From Minisyncoccia bacterium (lineage in GTDB: Bacteria; Patescibacteriota; Minisyncoccia; Phycocordibacterales; PALSA-1337), in NCBI GenBank assembly GCA_038211765.1, contig JBBQVG010000022.1, forward strand, positions 1 through 15,362: 15,362 bases of DNA, given 5' to 3'. A model generated the notes under the pieces. It had not been told where the DNA came from. It was given only the letters and a program-made list of their open reading frames with translations, and did no database searches. Of this stretch, positions 5,840 through 14,700 are shown one piece after another. How positions within the stretch are numbered: the stretch's first letter is position 1; each line of letters begins with the position of its first letter. The translations under genes and the position numbers were made by a program.

Positions 5840-6097
5840 ATGGCAAAAGAAAATTCTGCGTTTATGAAACCTATGACTATAAGTTCGGATCTGGCCGCAG
5901 TTGTCGGCGCAGGCCCTATGCCTCGATCTGAGGTGGTCAAGGCTCTCTGGGTATATATCAAGAAGCACAATCTCCAGGATCCCAAGAACAAGCGCAATAT
6001 CAACGCCGATGAAAATCTCAAGAAGGTTTTTGATGGCAAGGCAGTGGTCAATATGTTCGAAATGACCAAGCTGGTGTCAAAGCATCTGACGAATTAA
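5840..6097 (+). CDS. SWIB/MDM2 domain protein
   Basis: 85-aa ORF. PMPRSEVVKALWVYIKKHNLQDPKNKRNINADENLKKVF matches the SWIB domain pattern. Confidence 0.85.
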   Translation: MAKENSAFMKPMTISSDLAAVVGAGPMPRSEVVKALWVYIKKHNLQDPKNKRNINADENLKKVFDGKAVVNMFEMTKLVSKHLTN

Positions 6098-7797: not shown

Positions 7798-7825
7798 TTG
7801 ACAGATTTATGGAATGTGCTAGACT
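7798..7825 (+). promoter_or_regulatory. Strong sigma70-type promoter with extended -10
   Basis: Perfect TTGACA (7798-7803), 16-nt spacer, TGc-TAGACT (7817-7825). A ~240-bp very AT-rich tract (UP-like) lies immediately upstream. Confidence 0.6.
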
Positions 7826-7831
7826 CTGCAA

Positions 7832-8697
7832 CAGAACAAAAGATGTGTCCAGGGAAGGCACTGCTATCCCGCTTCGATCGGAGCGCCATGTCTCAATAAA
7901 AATGACGGGCGCTCGGAAAGGAGCGGGATGAGGAACCTTAAAAATGCACATCATGAGTGATGGCACGACCATGACCCACGCCGAGTGGCTGGCATGGTTG
8001 CGCGGGGAGTAGTAGTACTCCCTATGCTGTGACTGCAGTAATGTAGCGCACGGAGTATGGGTATCAGCTTGGCAAAAGAAATGATACAGCAGACCCACTG
8101 CGACAAGGGAAAGGTATCCATACCTACACAAATGGAGATGCACGCAGAGTTAACAACGCAAATAATTCTGCGTGCATATAGGGGGGAACTCATGTTCCCC
8201 ACTTTATCAGGTTCGTTTTGGAAATGAGCCTGCAAAGTGTCCGTCAGTTAGAAAAAGTAGTTCTTTACAATAGTGTCTGCACTATCTTGCATCTAAAGTG
8301 ATGCGTAGATGCGAGATAGTGCAGATACTTCGCAGGTATCCGAGCACGCTGTGTGACCCGGTACAACCCGGCGTATAGTAACCTCTTTTTCACATGGATG
8401 AGAGGTAAGGGCGCACGGAGTTCCCGTGACCACCCGAAAAGTAGTGAGTGCGAATGAAAGCTTCAGCTTTCATTGGCCCGGAAAGCTCAGCATTGGTGCT
8501 GAGTAACCGTTTGTTTCGCCACATCGCGCTTCTACCAGGAAGCGGAGGTTGTGGGAAACATCTCATTGCATGGGTGCTGTGTACACCCGAGACATGCTGG
8601 AGCATGTTCTCACTGCGAGTTTTTCGGTTCGCTCATTCAACCCAAATGAGCATCTTATTGAATCAATGACATGAAGTCGTTGATTCAAAGGAATTTG
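7832..8697 (+). ncRNA. Candidate large structured non-coding RNA / highly structured leader (family not recognised)
   Basis: No credible ORF. There is a dense series of perfect local helices. Examples: 7866-7873/7922-7929 enclosing 7881-7887/7908-7914; 7968-7973/7993-7998; 8005-8011/8016-8022; 8138-8148/8167-8177; 8183-8189/8194-8200; 8273-8295/8306-8328; 8381-8386/8401-8406; 8454-8461/8466-8473; 8486-8492/8497-8503; 8527-8532/8539-8544; 8592-8597/8602-8607; 8658-8670/8676-8688. Boundaries are approximate. Confidence 0.5.
8273..8328 (+). other. 23-bp hairpin immediately after the first GTTCTTTACA box (8260-8269)
   Basis: 8273-8295 pairs with 8306-8328 (21 Watson-Crick plus 2 G-U pairs) around a 10-nt loop. 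Confidence 0.7.
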
Positions 8698-8708
8698 GTT
8701 CTTTACAT

Positions 8709-9014
8709 ATGAAAACTTTACTATTGTTCGTCTTCGCGGCATTTGTGCTCGTCGGATGTGTTCCGGAGCAAAGCGCACCCCGATCGCTTACCTATTTTCC
8801 AACTAATAATTGGCAGGTAGTGAGTGTGACGGAAGGTGAGGTGGTGGTCGAAACAAAATCGACCAACTTGCCCCTGCGATACAGGGTAGTCCGAGCTACT
8901 CCTGTTACGCCACTGACCAACGGTCAGTTTGCGAGGGTTGAGCTCACTTTGAAACGCCATCTGTACAACCCTGACGAGGTTGCCACAGCTCGAGCGTTTC
9001 CGGCGGACCACTGA
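8709..9014 (+). CDS. Small putative lipoprotein
   Basis: 101-aa ORF. MKTLLLFVFAAFVLVGC is a signal peptide with an L-V-G-C lipobox. The ATG is directly preceded by a GTTCTTTACA box (8698-8707). Confidence 0.6.
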   Translation: MKTLLLFVFAAFVLVGCVPEQSAPRSLTYFPTNNWQVVSVTEGEVVVETKSTNLPLRYRVVRATPVTPLTNGQFARVELTLKRHLYNPDEVATARAFPADH

Positions 9015-9110
9015 GGCGAGACCATGGATGTCTATAAACTCCCGTAATACTCTGGGGAAGCTCCAGGGCGCCTAACAAGCGGAAACTGTTGGGATGATGC
9101 AAATCGTCTC

Positions 9111-9163
9111 TCTGTTCTCGAGATGAGTATCTCGACTGACGAGTCTGAAAAGACGAAAACAGA
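9111..9163 (+). ncRNA. Hammerhead ribozyme, type III (HHR-1), predicted cleavage after C9117
   Basis: Stem III TCTGTT (9111-9116)/AACAGA (9158-9163), then C17. Stem I TCGAGA-TGAGTA-TCTCGA (9118-9135). Core CUGACGA (9136-9142). Stem II GTCT-GAAA-AGAC (9143-9154). Core GAAA (9155-9158). Confidence 0.85.
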
Positions 9164-9190
9164 AACGTTCTTTGAGTTAATAAAGCATTT

Positions 9191-9241
9191 CACCTCCGCT
9201 TTTTCTATTTCATTATTTTTGGAATAAAGAAAGCGGAGGTG
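9191..9241 (+). promoter_or_regulatory. Hairpin sequestering the Shine-Dalgarno sequence of the 9247 ORF
   Basis: CACCTCCGCTTT (9191-9202) pairs with AAAGCGGAGGTG (9230-9241). GGAGG (9235-9239) lies in the 3' arm, 7 nt before the ATG at 9247. Confidence 0.6.
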
Positions 9242-9246
9242 TAAAA

Positions 9247-9429
9247 ATGCCATTCTGCCGTCCCAAAGGGTCGGAGCTGGTTGCGATCATTGGTCGTAGC
9301 CTTCTCAGTAGTTGGGTGCACTCAAGCGTTGGCAGGCTGAAATCTGTCTTGGTAACCCCAGTAAAGAAGAAATTCTTTACACTTGAGAGTCGCAACTGCA
9401 AGCCGTATGAAGAGTACCTCTTCATTTGA
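9247..9429 (+). CDS. Hypothetical small protein (60 aa)
   Basis: The ORF is preceded by a strong GGAGGTG SD at optimal spacing. No family recognised, and an internal hairpin is present, so coding status is uncertain. Confidence 0.4.
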   Translation: MPFCRPKGSELVAIIGRSLLSSWVHSSVGRLKSVLVTPVKKKFFTLESRNCKPYEEYLFI

Positions 9430-9537
9430 ATCATTAGCAAATATCGATGGTAGTCCATCGGAGATGATTCACGGAAGGGAGGTGTTGGGGTAATTCAAAA
9501 CCCTGACACCTCCTATCATCCTTATTTAGGAAAATTT

Positions 9538-9696
9538 ATGGGGATGGGAGCAAAGTCTTTCAAAACCACTGGAGGGTCAGGGGGCAAGAAAGGTCACTCC
9601 AACATGGTTCATTGGACGTTCACTGAGGAAATCAAAGTGATCGCCAAGAAGGCACGCAGGATGGCCGATCGAGCTCTCTCCCGTCCGCGGGAGTAG
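9538..9696 (+). CDS. Hypothetical small basic protein (52 aa, below the ORF-track cutoff)
   Basis: My translation: MGMGAKSFKTTGGSGGKKGHSNMVHWTFTEEIKVIAKKARRMADRALSRPRE, ending at TAG. AGGA lies 6 nt upstream of the ATG. Confidence 0.3.
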   Translation: MGMGAKSFKTTGGSGGKKGHSNMVHWTFTEEIKVIAKKARRMADRALSRPRE

Positions 9697-9972
9697 GAAG
9701 CAATAACACCTGTAAAATGGTTGCCACAAAATCCGGTGGTGTAAATCAAGGTAAAAAGTTTTGTCCCCATTTCGTAAAATGGAGAGCCTAGAGGAAGCAG
9801 AGCCTCACGCAGTCGGAGCCGTATGGCTAGTATAGAGGTAACAGAGATCGACACTCTATTGCGTCCGAAGACTTGGTTGGCTAGTCTCCAACCCTAAGAT
9901 CGAGCACGGCCCAGTCGTGGGATACTCTAGTGGAAGTAACTAAAATCCACTCTTGATGACATTGTCATCAAG

Positions 9973-10024
9973 TTCTGTCTCAGAATGTAATTCTGACTGA
10001 TGAGCTCAAAAGAGCGAAACAGAA
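9973..10024 (+). ncRNA. Hammerhead ribozyme, type III (HHR-3 by order of discovery, second in position), predicted cleavage after C9979
   Basis: Stem III TTCTGT (9973-9978)/ACAGAA (10019-10024), then C17. Stem I TCAGAA(T)-GTA-(A)TTCTGA (9980-9996). Core CUGAUGA (9997-10003). Stem II GCTC-AAAA-GAGC (10004-10015). Core GAAA (10016-10019). Confidence 0.85.
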
Positions 10025-10035
10025 GTTCTTTACAA

Positions 10036-10091
10036 TCATGTTCATAGTATTCTGAATATTTATATAGGTACTTAGAATACTATGAATATGA
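10036..10091 (+). promoter_or_regulatory. ~20-bp hairpin burying the first two in-frame ATGs of the 10082 ORF
   Basis: 10036-10055 pairs with 10072-10091, with a 13-bp perfect core TTCATAGTATTCT/AGAATACTATGAA. The ATGs at 10082 and 10088 lie in the 3' arm. Confidence 0.6.
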
Positions 10092-10258
10092 AAATGAAAG
10101 TACTGTTTATCAGTATCGCCGGGCTCTGGGCAGTTGCTGCTTGGGCGAGTTACGAGCCCCACGTTCTTTTGATGAACGTGGCGAGTGTGTTGGGATTGCA
10201 GCTAGGTATCATTTATTTGGTACTTGAGCGGCGGCACACGAGGCGCGTGACCAAGTGA
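10082..10258 (+). CDS. Small hydrophobic protein, two predicted transmembrane helices (58 aa, below the ORF-track cutoff)
   Basis: My translation: MNMKMKVLFISIAGLWAVAAWASYEPHVLLMNVASVLGLQLGIIYLVLERRHTRRVTK, ending at TGA. It has two ~19-aa hydrophobic stretches and a basic tail. Confidence 0.45.
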   Translation: MNMKMKVLFISIAGLWAVAAWASYEPHVLLMNVASVLGLQLGIIYLVLERRHTRRVTK

Positions 10259-10298
10259 GGGACTTGAATACCCCTTCTCCATCCAGTGAGAAACTGGA

Positions 10299-10349
10299 TT
10301 GCTCTCGAGATGTGTGTCTCGACTGATGAGTCCGAAAGGACGAAAGCAG
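10299..10349 (+). ncRNA. Hammerhead ribozyme, type III (HHR-2), predicted cleavage after C10304
   Basis: Stem III TTGCT (10299-10303)/AGCAG (10345-10349), then C17. Stem I TCGAGA-TGTGTG-TCTCGA (10305-10322). Core CUGAUGA (10323-10329). Stem II GTCC-GAAA-GGAC (10330-10341). Core GAAA (10342-10345). Confidence 0.85.
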
Positions 10350-10364
10350 AGTGTTCTTCGTAAA

Positions 10365-10426
10365 TTGATGTTCATAATAATCTTATTTTTGAATATCATC
10401 AGAAATTAGATTATTATGAACATCAA
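10365..10426 (+). promoter_or_regulatory. 19-bp perfect hairpin burying the start codon of the GNAT gene
   Basis: TTGATGTTCATAATAATCT (10365-10383) pairs with AGATTATTATGAACATCAA (10408-10426) around a 24-nt loop. The ATG at 10416 is inside the 3' arm. Confidence 0.65.
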
Positions 10427-10844
10427 AATCATCTCTGCATCTGTAGCTACTCACCAGCTATTCAGTCAACACGCATACATCAAAGCTGATCTCTGGTTCC
10501 CAACTCTGTTTGGAGGGGATCGTATCTCATGTTGTGATGAGGCTGTGGTCGTTGAAGTCAGTGGTACAATCGTCGCTTTGGCGACTATCGCTCCAGAAGG
10601 AGAAATGACCTCAGGTGTTCCCACTATTGTTGGTCTATATACAGTACGTGGTCACCGGAAGTCCGGATACGCACGCCTGGCTTTCGAAGCGGCGGTTAAG
10701 AGGGGAATCGAACGTGGGTTTACCAAGATCCGCGTTGACACGCTCTCTAAGGGAGCTTTGAGAATCACGAAAACGATGCCAATGGAACTGTCACAAGTTC
10801 TAGAGGTTGGCCTCCAGATCCTTCTTTGTGGATTCCTGGAATAA
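10416..10844 (+). CDS. GNAT family N-acetyltransferase
   Basis: 142-aa ORF. VRGHRKSGYARLAFEAAVKRGIERG fits the GNAT motif A (R/Q-x-x-G-x-G/A) acetyl-CoA binding segment. Confidence 0.7.
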   Translation: MNIKIISASVATHQLFSQHAYIKADLWFPTLFGGDRISCCDEAVVVEVSGTIVALATIAPEGEMTSGVPTIVGLYTVRGHRKSGYARLAFEAAVKRGIERGFTKIRVDTLSKGALRITKTMPMELSQVLEVGLQILLCGFLE

Positions 10845-11147: not shown

Positions 11148-11297
11148 CTGATGGACAGACATCCGAAGGATGCGCAGGGCTCGGCAGATAAGAGTCCTAA
11201 CCTTCGATTCAGAAGCGCAATTGTTGTCACCTTTGTAAAGCGTGAGCCTCGTATGCAGTACGTTGGGAAGAGTGACTTCCTGAGAACAAATAGTCAC

Positions 11298-11340
11298 GAA
11301 AAAACCGCACTCCATTATTGACGTGCGGTTTCATCATTTT
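11298..11340. terminator. Bidirectional intrinsic terminator (end of the + strand block and of rny)
   Basis: A-run, AAACCGCAC (11302-11310) pairing with GTGCGGTTT (11323-11331), followed by T-rich sequence. Confidence 0.7.
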
Positions 11341-11351
11341 TATACTTATGT

Positions 11352-13111: not shown

Positions 13112-13309
13112 TTACCAAATAATTGATGATGAGTGCCGACGCGGTGTAACAAGAAATCCTTCGTATTCATGTTTGAGCTTATGGTTGTTGAGAAGTGGAT
13201 CAAATTCATTAAGTGTAAAAATCCTTATACGTTCATTAACTTTTTCACAGATCTCCTTTTGGAGCCTCTTCCAATCTTTTGTGAATAGTGATGACCAATG
13301 AATTATCAT
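13112..13309 (-). CDS. RelE/ParE-superfamily type II toxin (short, atypical C-terminus)
   Basis: 65-aa ORF. FTKDWKRLQKE...RIRIF..NEFDPLLNNHKLKHEYEGF resembles RelE/YafQ-like toxins. It lies 17 nt downstream of an antitoxin-like gene. Confidence 0.5.
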   Translation of the reverse strand: MIIHWSSLFTKDWKRLQKEICEKVNERIRIFTLNEFDPLLNNHKLKHEYEGFLVTPRRHSSSIIW

Positions 13310-13326
13310 AAAGTAGGTAGGACATA

Positions 13327-13611
13327 TTAAGAGTTTAGGGCAGCAATAAGTTCGTCCACCGAATGAGCCACTGGTAATTTTCCCTCCCTGTATTCTTTTT
13401 CTCCTTTTAATAAGGACGCAATTGTTTTCTTGTTTAGTACGTATTCTTCTTCTGTAGTCAGGCTCACCCCTTTATTACGCACAAACTGGCGAAGAAGGGC
13501 ATTGACGAGCGTGCCGAGAGGCAACCCGATCTGTTCGGCGGTTTTCTGGGCGGCCTGCTTGAGATTCTTGTCGATTTTGACTGTGAGTAAGGTTTTAGTA
13601 TTTGTAGTCAT
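13327..13611 (-). CDS. RelB/DinJ-like (ribbon-helix-helix) antitoxin
   Basis: TKTLLTVKIDKNLKQAAQKTAEQIGLPLGTLVNALLRQFV is an RHH/DinJ pattern. I prefer the ATG at 13611 (MTTNTK...) over the ORF-track start at 13659. Confidence 0.6.
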   Translation of the reverse strand: MTTNTKTLLTVKIDKNLKQAAQKTAEQIGLPLGTLVNALLRQFVRNKGVSLTTEEEYVLNKKTIASLLKGEKEYREGKLPVAHSVDELIAALNS

Positions 13612-13671
13612 ATACCCAAGTATATACTTCGGTATGATGGTGTCAATAAAAATCAACATACGTCAGGATCA

Positions 13672-14700
13672 ATGTCTACTGGTAGGTTTCGTAATGAAGC
13701 ATACAATTGTGGCATGGATGAAAAGGGTAAAAATATATTATTGTACGCATCACCTGATGGGGCACTCAAGTTGGAGGTGTCGATTGATGGCGAGACGGTT
13801 TGGCTGTCACAAAAGCAGATGGCGGAGCTTTTTGATTGCAGTGTCTTTAATATCAATGTGCATTTAAAGAATGTGTATAAAGAGGGCGAATTAGTGGAAA
13901 GTCGAACTATTGAGGAATCCTCAATAGTTCAAAAAGAAGGAGGGCGGACTGTTTCTCGAAGTACTATGTTTTATAACTTAGACGCCATTATTTCCGTCGG
14001 ATACCGTATCAATTCCATAAGAGGCACACAATTTCGCATCTGGGCCACAAAAAAGCTGAAAGAGTACATAGTCAAAGGCTTTGTCCTCGATGACGAACGG
14101 CTGGCTCAGGGCAAGAAATCAGATTACTTTGATGAGCTTCTCGAGCGAATCCGTGGTATCCGCGCCAGCGAACGCAATTTTTATCAGAAGATTACTGATA
14201 TCTATGCCACAAGTGTGGATTACAACAAGAATATAGAGGACACCCGGAAATTCTTTGCAGGAGTGCAGAACAAGATTCACTATGCAGTTCATGGCAAGAC
14301 TGCAGCAGAAATAATTGATTCTCGAGCTGATGCAAAGAAAAAGTATATGGGACTGACCAATTTCAAAGGGAAACTCATTAAACAATCCGATATTTCCATC
14401 GCCAAGAATTATTTGAATGAAAAGGAATTGAAACAACTTAACCTGATAACCACGCTCTATCTCGACTTTGCAGAATTGCAGGCAAGCAACGAACGTCCGA
14501 TGACTATGAAGGAGTGGGTCAGTAAACTGGATGATTTCCTAAAGTTGAGTGAAAAGAAGGTCTTGAAAGGTGTTGGTACGATGAGTAAAAGCGTTGCGGA
14601 CAAGAAAGCGCACGCAGAATTTGAGAAGTACCGCAAAGAGAAGGATAAAAAATATGCTTCAGATTTTGACAGGCAGATGAGGAAGTATGTGAAGAAGTAA
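13672..14700 (+). CDS. rhuM: RhuM family (virulence-associated) protein
   Basis: LYASPDGALKLEVSIDGETVWLSQKQMAELF...YNLDAIISVGYRINSIRGTQFRIWATKKLKEYIVKGFVLDDERL matches the RhuM family. The true start may be the ATG at 13714 (MDEKGK...). Confidence 0.8.
   Translation: MSTGRFRNEAYNCGMDEKGKNILLYASPDGALKLEVSIDGETVWLSQKQMAELFDCSVFNINVHLKNVYKEGELVESRTIEESSIVQKEGGRTVSRSTMFYNLDAIISVGYRINSIRGTQFRIWATKKLKEYIVKGFVLDDERLAQGKKSDYFDELLERIRGIRASERNFYQKITDIYATSVDYNKNIEDTRKFFAGVQNKIHYAVHGKTAAEIIDSRADAKKKYMGLTNFKGKLIKQSDISIAKNYLNEKELKQLNLITTLYLDFAELQASNERPMTMKEWVSKLDDFLKLSEKKVLKGVGTMSKSVADKKAHAEFEKYRKEKDKKYASDFDRQMRKYVKK

Follow-up and report, generated by a model that had tools for sequence, protein, structure and literature searches.

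The stretch analysed here (the window, 15,362 nt) is a contig of Patescibacteria (CPR), whose host is an uncultured ultra-small bacterium. Three hammerhead motifs (HH1, HH2 and HH3) sit in a variable island between the genes for a TrmB-like regulator and RNase Y; other scanned genes of the window, cellular or accessory in kind, are those for a CCA-adding enzyme, tRNAs, HU, SWIB, RhuM and RelB. The island contains the following features.

7798-7825, plus strand: promoter-like TTGACA-16-TAGACT in an AT-rich stretch, 10/12 matches, putative start of the unit
7944-8012, plus strand: leader micro-ORF of 22 codons (MHIMSDGTTMTHAEWLAWLRGE); the related locus L119 has a similar peptide (MVILADGTVVSYAEWLTIRGN) in this position
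8183-8270, plus strand: ribozyme-less junction element, a short hairpin and a long hairpin (base ACUUU...AAAGU), with the box AGTTCTTTACAA at 8259-8270
8272-8329, plus strand: 24-bp hairpin right after that box, -42.5 kcal/mol, z = -8.0
8631-8708, plus strand: second ribozyme-less junction element, with the box GGTTCTTTACAT at 8697-8708, directly before the lipoprotein start codon
8709-9014, plus strand: lipoprotein-like gene with a signal peptide that ends in ...LVGC; it is the cassette before HH1
9091-9110, plus strand: hairpin directly adjoining HH1 stem III on its 5' strand, a family-wide feature
9111-9163, plus strand: HH1, type III hammerhead, predicted cleavage after C9117
9166-9177, plus strand: leader box CGTTCTTTGAGT after HH1
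9185-9250, plus strand: long hairpin pairing the Shine-Dalgarno GGAGGUG and AUG of ORF 9247, -34.2 kcal/mol, z = -6.6
9247-9429 and 9538-9696, plus strand: two putative orphan ORFs (60 aa and 52 aa), self-hits only
9755-9835, plus strand: conserved non-coding element, present as a partial copy with its core AGCCTAGAGGAAGCAGAGCC at 9785-9804
9952-9972, plus strand: hairpin abutting HH2 stem III
9973-10024, plus strand: HH2, type III hammerhead, predicted cleavage after C9979
10024-10035, plus strand: leader box AGTTCTTTACAA after HH2
10036-10091, plus strand: 28-nt-arm hairpin holding AUG 10082 of the next ORF, z = -7.8
10082-10258, plus strand: putative orphan ORF, 58 aa, hydrophobic, self-hit only
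10281-10299, plus strand: hairpin abutting HH3 stem III, with a 1-nt overlap
10299-10349, plus strand: HH3, type III hammerhead with weak stem III, predicted cleavage after C10304
10352-10363, plus strand: leader box TGTTCTTCGTAA after HH3
10365-10426, plus strand: 28-nt-arm hairpin holding AUG 10416 of the GNAT gene, z = -8.6
10416-10844, plus strand: GNAT acetyltransferase gene (PF00583, E = 3.7e-7), the cassette after HH3
11304-11342, in the gap that separates the array from the convergent RNase Y gene: inferred terminator-like hairpin ACCGCAC...GTGCGGT with a T-rich run behind it

The island apparently forms one transcription unit of ~3.5 kb, running from the putative promoter at 7798-7825 to the terminator-like hairpin at 11304-11342. 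In L119 the corresponding position ahead of the array holds TTGACA-17-TATACT, and a promoter scan of the window found no site comparable to 7798-7825 before 10371. The terminator-like hairpin was read by eye; its loop is 12 nt, the scanner's limit 8 nt. All three hammerheads lie in non-coding gaps on the gene strand, and to that extent the earlier note, which had placed each precisely between cistrons of one apparent operon, described the arrangement well. Homology supports only the lipoprotein and GNAT genes, however, and HH2 is preceded by ~270 nt of non-coding RNA with no gene in it. The lipoprotein has tblastn homologues in L082, where the gene is flanked by two hammerheads, and in L054. 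The ORFs at 9247-9429, 9538-9696 and 10082-10258 have no homologue in libraries of 5.8 and 1.8 billion proteins; the status of ‘cistron’ is therefore putative between HH1 and HH3. Exact-protein contig look-ups with the GNAT protein and ORF52 returned no record. Cargo elsewhere in the hammerhead family includes toxin-like genes (MazF), and in L081 a hammerhead stands before the ribosomal genes S19-L22-S3-L16-S17.

By sequence and structure the three elements are genuine type III hammerheads, and self-cleavage is predicted for them. Each has C3-U4-G5-A6-N7-G8-A9, G12-A13-A14, the A15.1-U16.1 pair and H17, with loops closing stems I and II and with stem III open, the topology that makes them type III. 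In HH1 (core CUGACGA), stem III is UCUGUU/AACAGA with C17 at 9117, stem I is UCGAGA(U)/(A)UCUCGA, and stem II is GUCU-GAAA-AGAC, with GAA next. HH2 (core CUGAUGA) has stem III UUCUGU/ACAGAA with C17 at 9979, stem I UCAGAA/UUCUGA and stem II GCUC-AAAA-GAGC; HH3 has stem III UUGCU/AGCAG with a terminal U-G pair and C17 at 10304, stem I UCGAGA/UCUCGA and stem II GUCC-GAAA-GGAC. The description from which this work started, three canonical type III hammerheads on the same strand, thus proves correct base for base; so does its statement that the stem changes are compensatory, as the stems differ among HH1-HH3 yet stay paired.

With the Rfam model Hammerhead_3 (RF00008) the three share the full catalytic core, the three-helix junction, the open stem III and the NUH cleavage site; they differ in stem II, where 4 bp and a tetraloop take up less length than the stem II loop region of the model. 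A search with that model, which the earlier note had proposed, matched all three sites at 44.5, 31.3 and 29.1 bits for HH1, HH2 and HH3 (E = 4e-7, 2e-3 and 1e-2 over the whole window), though all lie below the gathering score of 48.5 bits and were detected in E-value mode only. At the gathering threshold Rfam reports four tRNAs in the window and no hammerhead. The gathering score is a threshold for curation rather than a biological test; still, the low scores, together with the weak stem III of HH3, are what one would cite for chance resemblance or for decayed pseudo-ribozymes. The minimum-free-energy fold has the hammerhead shape for HH1 and HH2; in HH3 stems I and II form, and stem III (4-5 pairs) is outcompeted by the adjacent upstream hairpin. 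Against accident or decay stand the intact cores, the covariation described below across 94 relatives, and a strict sequence-plus-pairing descriptor for which HH1-HH3 are the sole matches in the window and which found not even one match in 2000 dinucleotide-preserving shuffles of it. We regard this explanation as scarcely credible.

A covariance model built from HH1-HH3 gathered 94 relatives in 52 metagenome loci. Among the 79 distinct relatives the catalytic core is near-invariant: C3, G5, A6, G12, A13, A15.1 and U16.1 do not vary at all, and 78 sequences carry C (56), A (13) or U (9) at position 17. Covariation is evident in all three stems. Over these 79 sequences 94.9% of stem cells are paired, against only 32-55% in slid controls, figures to be read with the caveat that the alignment was fitted to the model; double-change cells number 242, compared with 52 +/- 6 in shuffles (0/500 as high), and 14 of 16 pairs change on both sides. 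Conservation is strong in loop I (U-G-N-G-U-R) and loop II (R-A-A-A), which suggests a loop-loop tertiary contact of the kind required for rapid cleavage at physiological Mg2+. One member alone among those scanned with Rfam passes 48.5 bits (in L127, 49.9 bits); standard annotation would miss nearly all the others because they score under the gathering cut-off.

Arrays are the rule in this family. From two to six hammerhead copies occur in 27 of the 55 loci of the subfamily, co-oriented except in L082 and L130, where a single distant copy per locus lies on the other strand. Most copies have same-strand ORFs ending <=250 nt upstream and starting <=250 nt downstream. The window, with its three hammerheads within 1.24 kb and its variable cargo, is one such multiple-hammerhead arrangement; the co-orientation claimed for it holds, but the word ‘uncommon’ does not. 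Viral contigs often carry arrays of three to five; a looser core pattern has at least 120 matches there, and a specific 26-nt hammerhead pattern has none. The arrangement itself was published in 2011: Perreault et al. (PMC3088659) described multiple hammerheads flanking individual genes, with triples in Agrobacterium tumefaciens (around ardA), Clostridium scindens and Azorhizobium caulinodans, and observed cleavage of triple arrangements both in vitro and in E. coli. As in the window, those arrays each pack from two to several hammerheads, all in one orientation, into a few kilobases, each copy flanks a single gene or short gene block of inconstant identity, and the suggested role is the conversion of a long transcript into gene-length mRNAs. 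The present case differs in its setting, a Patescibacteria (CPR) chromosome with no phage genes among the scanned proteins; in that all window copies are type III; and in its lineage-specific leader box and interleaved ribozyme-less junction hairpins. The find is thus solid and fairly ordinary, phage-like DNA having yielded the same arrangement in 2011. Its new elements are modest: the lineage of the host, the 5' hairpin abutting stem III, the leader box AGTTCTTTGAAA, and evidence of cassette swapping at hammerhead junctions.

A prophage was rejected as the setting: the scanned window proteins include no phage genes, megablast of the window against phage records found no match, and ORFs flanking hammerheads in related loci have no phage structural or integrase PHROG hits. 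The same hammerhead module is nevertheless abundant in viral contigs.

Two further components accompany the ribozyme. For 53 of 91 copies the gap between stem III and an upstream hairpin is zero (Mann-Whitney p = 5e-21), and in viral contigs the hairpin abuts stem III in 56 of 60 examples. Downstream, the lineage-specific leader box (AGTTCTTTGAAA) follows most copies, as do ordinary ribosome-binding sites; the box is absent from the 60 viral-contig hammerhead examples, and it also follows non-hammerhead junctions and ordinary promoters. Two accounts of the box were rejected. Pairing with stem II, stem III or the upstream-hairpin loop, as a pseudoknot, fails on inspection, as the box stays constant while these partners change; identity with an integron R' core or a sigma-70 -35 hexamer fails on sequence and spacing. 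In the window each hammerhead and box is followed by a third element, a very stable hairpin over the initiation region of the next ORF or gene, and the one at 10365-10426 is homologous to that at 10036-10091 after HH2. Outside the window such start-codon hairpins occur in a few relatives only; start-codon sequestration is no general trait of the family (65% versus 53% in controls, p = 0.12).

The purpose of bacterial hammerheads is still debated (reviewed in PMC6765202), and processing of polycistronic RNA by them has been proposed before (PMC3088659, PMC6765202). The account that we consider likely for this family is of that kind: functional type III hammerheads would cut a polycistronic RNA co-transcriptionally into single-cassette mRNAs, insulate the cassettes from one another and double as junctions in the DNA. 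Each hammerhead would fold during transcription and cut itself after C17. The upstream product would then end in the hairpin, ~7 nt and a 2',3'-cyclic phosphate, and the hairpin abutting stem III may shield that end; the downstream product would begin with a 5'-OH at the stem I hairpin and continue through the remainder of the ribozyme, the leader box and the initiation region of the gene, which in the window would be locked in its hairpin. As cleavage would split the RNA and leave hairpin and leader flanking the ends, the module could act as a portable insulator, uncoupling unrelated neighbouring cassettes from one another in stability and translation.

RiboJ-type synthetic insulators are made of the sTRSV hammerhead and a downstream hairpin. 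The likeness is close: a type III hammerhead before a gene trims off the RNA context upstream, and the form of the new 5' leader is set by an adjoining hairpin. The window arrays differ in being natural and tandemly repeated, and in having hairpins that conceal the start codon instead of exposing the ribosome-binding site. Phage T7, with RNase III processing sites between its early genes, offers a second parallel, as there too the mRNA upstream of the intercistronic cut is left with a 3'-terminal hairpin; hammerhead cleavage differs in being enzyme-free and in leaving 2',3'-cyclic phosphate and 5'-OH ends. By analogy, the ribozyme-less long-hairpin junctions could be a protein-dependent equivalent of the T7 kind.

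Identical cleavage chemistry, in arrays likewise placed on the gene strand, could also have the opposite effect. Cleavage might open the RNA to decay or terminate transcription, so that expression falls stepwise along the array and nothing is insulated: the 5'-OH downstream fragment would be degraded by an RNase J-type enzyme, or transcription torpedoed. In B. subtilis, RNase J1 degrades the 5'-OH product of the glmS ribozyme; a 5'-OH end thus need not stabilise. Low expression would fit the window's sequestered initiation regions (z -6.6 to -8.6) and the toxin-like cargo (MazF) elsewhere in the family. Yet the downstream fragment would start exactly at the stable stem I hairpin, a poor substrate for a 5' exonuclease; the box and the ordinary ribosome-binding sites are retained after most copies; and the ribosomal genes behind the L081 hammerhead need to be expressed. 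These points make decay or attenuation unlikely as the main function.

A further fate of the cut RNA would be excision of the 862-nt and 325-nt segments as circular or mobile RNAs, closed by an RtcB-type ligase in the manner of retrozymes and viroid-like RNAs. The cleavage ends are ligatable, and the idea was raised by Perreault et al. (PMC3088659), who did not detect such products. A circle would not rebuild its ribozyme, however, as neighbouring stem III halves mismatch (UUGCU with ACAGAA); the window shows a single polarity, and the segments bear ordinary genes. In retrozymes and viroid-like RNAs the hammerhead halves at the two unit ends join into one ribozyme upon circularisation, and ribozymes of both polarities are usual; non-complementary strands and single polarity led us to reject a retrozyme or viroid-like RNA, and circular excision in general seems very improbable.

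The DNA gives evidence of cassette exchange. HH1, HH2 and HH3 correspond in the same order to the three hammerheads of L119 at 84-93% identity, and the DNA between these orthologous hammerheads is unrelated. L114 and L106 are 99.2% identical save for a 1,027-nt cassette in L114 bounded by two hammerheads, to both of which the single hammerhead of L106 aligns. On the processing account, the ~65-bp hammerhead-plus-box copies would serve at the DNA level as homologous junctions for gain, loss and swap of cassettes. One could go further and suppose that they are mainly DNA repeats, recombination junctions or selfish cassette repeats in which RNA cleavage is incidental or lost. The hammerhead-bounded indel and the unrelated cargo between orthologous hammerheads would both follow, as would the patchy distribution: only 2 of the 80 genomes that share the RNase Y neighbourhood have hammerheads there. 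Mere repeats would not be expected to show compensatory double changes in all three stems or 13 near-invariant core nucleotides, and no recombinase adjoins the arrays, the conserved neighbour being the TrmB-like regulator. Repeats of this purely DNA-level kind are thus quite improbable.

By itself the locus adds little. The family is more useful: dozens of arrays in genome-reduced CPR bacteria, in which ribozymes are positionally interchangeable with plain hairpin junctions and the same leader box follows each. With near-identical strains that differ by one ribozyme-bounded cassette, these traits make the hypotheses of insulation or processing and of recombination at the junctions concretely testable.

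A bolder possibility, to be entertained rather than preferred, is that the hammerhead-plus-box modules form the junctions in an integron-like cassette array devoid of integrase, which would occupy a conserved chromosomal hotspot of Paceibacteria-type CPR downstream of the TrmB-like regulator. Integron arrays likewise have one promoter and co-oriented, promoterless, unrelated and mostly orphan cassettes, with a conserved structured element at each junction and presence or absence of cassettes between close strains. The differences are plain: no integrase was found among the scanned window proteins; there are no attC core sites (GTTRRRY/RYYYAAC), the box GTTCTTT not fitting the GTTRRRY core; the junction is a ribozyme; and exchange resembles plain homologous recombination. 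If the idea were true, the ribozyme as RNA would turn each newly acquired, mostly orphan cassette into an autonomous mRNA; the conserved ~65 bp as DNA would be the crossover site at which cassettes are gained, lost and shuffled; and the ribozyme-less long-hairpin junctions and a further conserved ~100-nt RNA, found beside some hammerheads, would be undescribed parts of the same system.

Rfam matched no known ribozyme class at the ribozyme-less junctions, and among other known ribozyme classes it gave one weak twister-P1-like match in the arrays (L106 2193-2266; 40 bits, the cut-off being 67). Rfam has no entry matching the element at 9755-9835 either. The junctions recur: the architecture seen at 8183-8270 has five copies in L127 and two in L119, interleaved with hammerheads, and the element at 8631-8708 is 78% identical to L082 1747-1835. 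One element has the signature AGCC...GGRAGCAGARCC. The 9755-9835 element has 12 copies among the loci compared, and it lies directly upstream of hairpin and hammerhead in L092, L094, L101, L106 and at one site in L127.

The earlier note placed three hammerhead ribozymes with an intact core on the forward strand between 9111 and 10349, and this is confirmed by the sequence itself, by a strict descriptor and by shuffling controls. The three are:

9111-9163, + strand: HH1, type III hammerhead, predicted cleavage after 9117
9973-10024, + strand: HH2, type III hammerhead, predicted cleavage after 9979
10299-10349, + strand: HH3, type III hammerhead, predicted cleavage after 10304

In each, the core CUGANGA...GAA is unbroken, with the A15.1-U16.1 pair and C17; stem I (6-7 bp) is closed by a loop, stem II (4 bp) by GAAA or AAAA, and stem III (5-6 bp) is open. 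The descriptor (core, three paired stems, U16.1 and H17) finds exactly these three sites in the window; 2000 dinucleotide-preserving shuffles of it yield no match. The Rfam Hammerhead_3 search proposed in the note matches all three as well, though below the gathering cut-off of 48.5 bits: HH1, HH2 and HH3 score 44.5, 31.3 and 29.1 bits (whole-window E-values 4e-7, 2e-3 and 1e-2), and appear solely when that cut-off is lifted. Thermodynamic folding recovers the hammerhead structure for HH1 and HH2; for HH3 stems I and II form, and stem III, which has a terminal U-G pair and overlaps the adjacent hairpin by one base, is missing from the minimum-energy fold.

A covariance model made from the three, run on 80 genomes sharing the RNase Y neighbourhood, located hammerheads there in only two (two copies in L059, one in L060), at the same hotspot among differing genes. 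Metagenome contigs scanned with an exact pattern gave 52 loci, in which the covariance model found 94 hammerheads. Over the 79 distinct sequences the core varies little or not at all, and 78 of them have C, A or U at position 17. Pairing holds in 94.9% of stem cells, and both sides have changed in 14 of the 16 pairs; double-change cells number 242, against 52 +/- 6 in shuffles, and pairing falls to 32-55% in a control with the partners slid. Just one of the family members scanned with Rfam passes the gathering cut-off. Chance resemblance or a set of relics is an extremely improbable reading of the three window sites.

Two to six copies occur in 27 of 55 loci, and all share one orientation except for a single distant opposite-strand copy in both L082 and L130; most copies have the end of a same-strand ORF less than 250 nt upstream and an ORF start less than 250 nt downstream. 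Three loci (L107, L119 and L127) have a window-like neighbourhood (tRNA cluster, TrmB or RNase Y), and in L081 a hammerhead (2796-2848, - strand) sits inside a core operon, with a 386-aa orphan ORF on one side and the ribosomal genes S19-L22-S3-L16-S17 on the other. These placements mark the family's hammerheads as chromosomal elements of bacteria with small genomes. In IMG/VR viral contigs, too, type III hammerheads of like build are abundant (84 matches in 80 loci), often in rows of three to five.

The window's hammerheads are a real feature, of an already known type. The arrangement had been called uncommon; that description must be dropped, because multi-hammerhead arrangements are already published. 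Cleavage in vitro was demonstrated for the triple arrangements of A. tumefaciens, C. scindens and A. caulinodans, and for that of A. tumefaciens in E. coli too; it was proposed that long transcripts are processed into gene-length mRNAs (Perreault et al., PMC3088659); a 2019 review repeats the proposal and calls the purpose still undefined (PMC6765202). Additions to this picture are a CPR host, systematically sub-threshold Rfam scores, an abutting hairpin, a leader box and a cassette indel bounded by hammerheads; they merit a specialist's attention and leave the category unchanged. No paper linking hammerheads to Patescibacteria/CPR was found in an incomplete coverage of the literature, which is weak evidence of novelty.

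The window appears to span an entire NCBI contig of 15,362 bp. Its genes comprise a CCA-adding enzyme, four tRNAs, UPF0102, a serine hydrolase, HU, a SWIB-domain protein, a TrmB-like regulator, RNase Y, a RelB-like antitoxin and RhuM. Proteins from Patescibacteria MAGs (with labels such as Paceibacterota and Taylorbacteria) share 73-86% identity with the RNase Y, and in most of these genomes HU adjoins RNase Y; in the window ~5.7 kb lie between them, and HH1-HH3 occupy the distal part of this insertion. The 85-aa protein adjoining HU (5840-6097, + strand) is a SWIB/MDM2 domain (PF02201, E = 1e-31). A second accessory patch flanks RNase Y on its far side; in it the RelB/DinJ-like antitoxin gene, then a 65-aa ORF, possibly the matching toxin, stand beside the RhuM-family gene (13112-13659, - strand; 13672-14700, + strand). 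Two sites may delimit transcription of the array:

7798-7825, + strand: promoter-like site TTGACA-16-TAGACT, a good match in an AT-rich region
~11304-11342: hairpin then T-rich run, facing the convergent RNase Y gene

With these, with no comparable site before 10371 in a scan of the window, and with TTGACA-17-TATACT at the equivalent relative position in L119, a single transcription unit of ~3.5 kb is plausible. Downstream of the array promoter and ahead of the first junction element lies a conserved micro-ORF of 21-22 codons (…DGT…AEWL…RG…; window 7944-8012, L119 ~2906-2841 on the - strand), which may encode a leader peptide.

Two elements frame the hammerheads. Upstream, a hairpin adjoins stem III on its 5' strand: 53 of 91 cases have no gap, and 67 of 91 have a gap of 2 nt or less. 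The mean energy of the 30 nt preceding hammerheads is -7.1 kcal/mol, whereas controls average -3.5 (p = 5e-21), and the hairpin is found equally in viral examples (56/60). Downstream, a 12-nt leader box (consensus AGTTCTTTGAAA) begins within 2 nt of the stem III end in 79 of 91, and scores above the 99th percentile of control windows in 65 of 91 hammerheads (L059-L132). It has no covarying or pairing partner that we could find, and accompanies none of 60 viral-contig hammerheads. It also lies 3' of ordinary promoters (L072, L122, L032), of ribozyme-less junction hairpins (L127, L119, window 8183-8270 and 8631-8708) and of a twister-like motif in L106. Given that absence and these other settings, the box is a lineage-specific element that opens 5' leaders and is separate from the ribozyme. 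The L106 motif (2193-2266, + strand; twister-P1-like, 40.3 bits, gathering score 67.2, E = 2e-5) falls within a four-hammerhead array, with a box-like GTACCTTAAA after it.

The ribozyme-less junction elements occupy hammerhead-equivalent slots of the array and run from a short variable hairpin to a long hairpin (base A-Y-C-U-U-U...A-G-A-G-R-U) to a leader box; Rfam recognises none of them. Exceptionally stable hairpins (24-28 bp, z -6.6 to -8.6) directly follow four window boxes:

8183-8258: ribozyme-less junction element
8259-8270: leader box
8272-8329: stable hairpin
8631-8696: ribozyme-less junction element
8697-8708: leader box
9166-9177: leader box
9185-9250: stable hairpin
10024-10035: leader box
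10036-10091: stable hairpin
10352-10363: leader box
10365-10426: stable hairpin
L127, five copies, e.g. 5345-5270, - strand: ribozyme-less junction elements
L119, ~1420-1335 and ~1000-915, - strand: ribozyme-less junction elements

Three of the four post-box hairpins bury the Shine-Dalgarno and/or start codon of the next ORF: that after HH1 pairs both for ORF 9247 (small ORFs are named by start coordinate), and those after HH2 and HH3, homologous to one another and to one in L119, pair the AUGs at 10082 and 10416. They could be a translational lock or an RNase III substrate; family-wide, start-region burial does not differ significantly from controls (65% vs 53%, p = 0.12). The ribozyme-less elements may be RNase III-type sites or an undescribed motif.

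The reading we prefer, and think probable, is that the array transcript is cut at each hammerhead and neighbouring cassettes are uncoupled. Self-cleavage would occur co-transcriptionally at every hammerhead junction; the upstream mRNA would retain its 3' hairpin, 7 nt from the new 3' end, and the downstream mRNA would begin with a 5'-OH at a paired stem I nucleotide, then the box, then its own initiation region. Decay and translation of unrelated adjacent cassettes would thereby be uncoupled. RNase III sites between the early genes of T7, and the engineered insulator RiboJ, share this logic; the long-hairpin junctions of L127, which alternate with hammerheads, fit as a protein-dependent version of the same job. 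That cleavage is instead a decay or attenuation device seems unlikely, and that it excises a circular RNA, very unlikely indeed.

HH1, HH2 and HH3 correspond, in the same order, to the three hammerheads of L119 (84-93% identity over 60-160 nt), and the DNA between matched hammerheads shows no detectable similarity. L114 matches L106 at 99.2% identity over 1.7 kb and then has 1,027 nt extra, flanked by two hammerheads; the lone L106 hammerhead there aligns to both, with a mismatch at the outermost stem III pair, as expected of a chimera. The upstream hairpin moves with upstream cargo, the box and leader with downstream cargo. That the motif is mainly a DNA-level repeat we regard as distinctly improbable.

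Most of the cargo is orphan. Only a minority of the 110 flanking ORFs could be annotated, with periplasmic binding proteins, zinc-finger proteins, methyltransferases, MoxR, MazF and GNAT among them; neither phage structural genes nor recombinases turned up. Window cargo with support is limited to the lipoprotein gene (8709-9014; homologues in L082 and L054) and the GNAT gene (10416-10844); ORFs 9247, 9538 and 10082 gave self-matches only in libraries of 5.8 and 1.8 billion proteins.

Other elements recur at these loci. A conserved non-coding element of ~100 nt (core AGCCNNNNGGRAGCAGARCC; closing helix UUUGUC/GACAAA in most copies; no Rfam match) lies at:

window ~9755-9835 (core 9785-9804), without its 3' half
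L106 1350-1436
L092, L094 and L101
L127, three copies

It is just 5' of a hairpin and hammerhead in L092, L094, L101, L106 and one of the three L127 sites. In L119, two hammerheads are preceded by a 60-nt element (2810-2749 and 1967-1906), which recurs at the end of the window array (11199-11258), with no hammerhead after it. About 30 nt 5' of HH1 (9066-9083), relatives (L119 ~2692-2672, L082, L121, L110) show CTGACGAGCGGAAA, which resembles a hammerhead core without stem II; the window copy, mutated to CTAACAAGCGGAAA, is therefore probably a relic.
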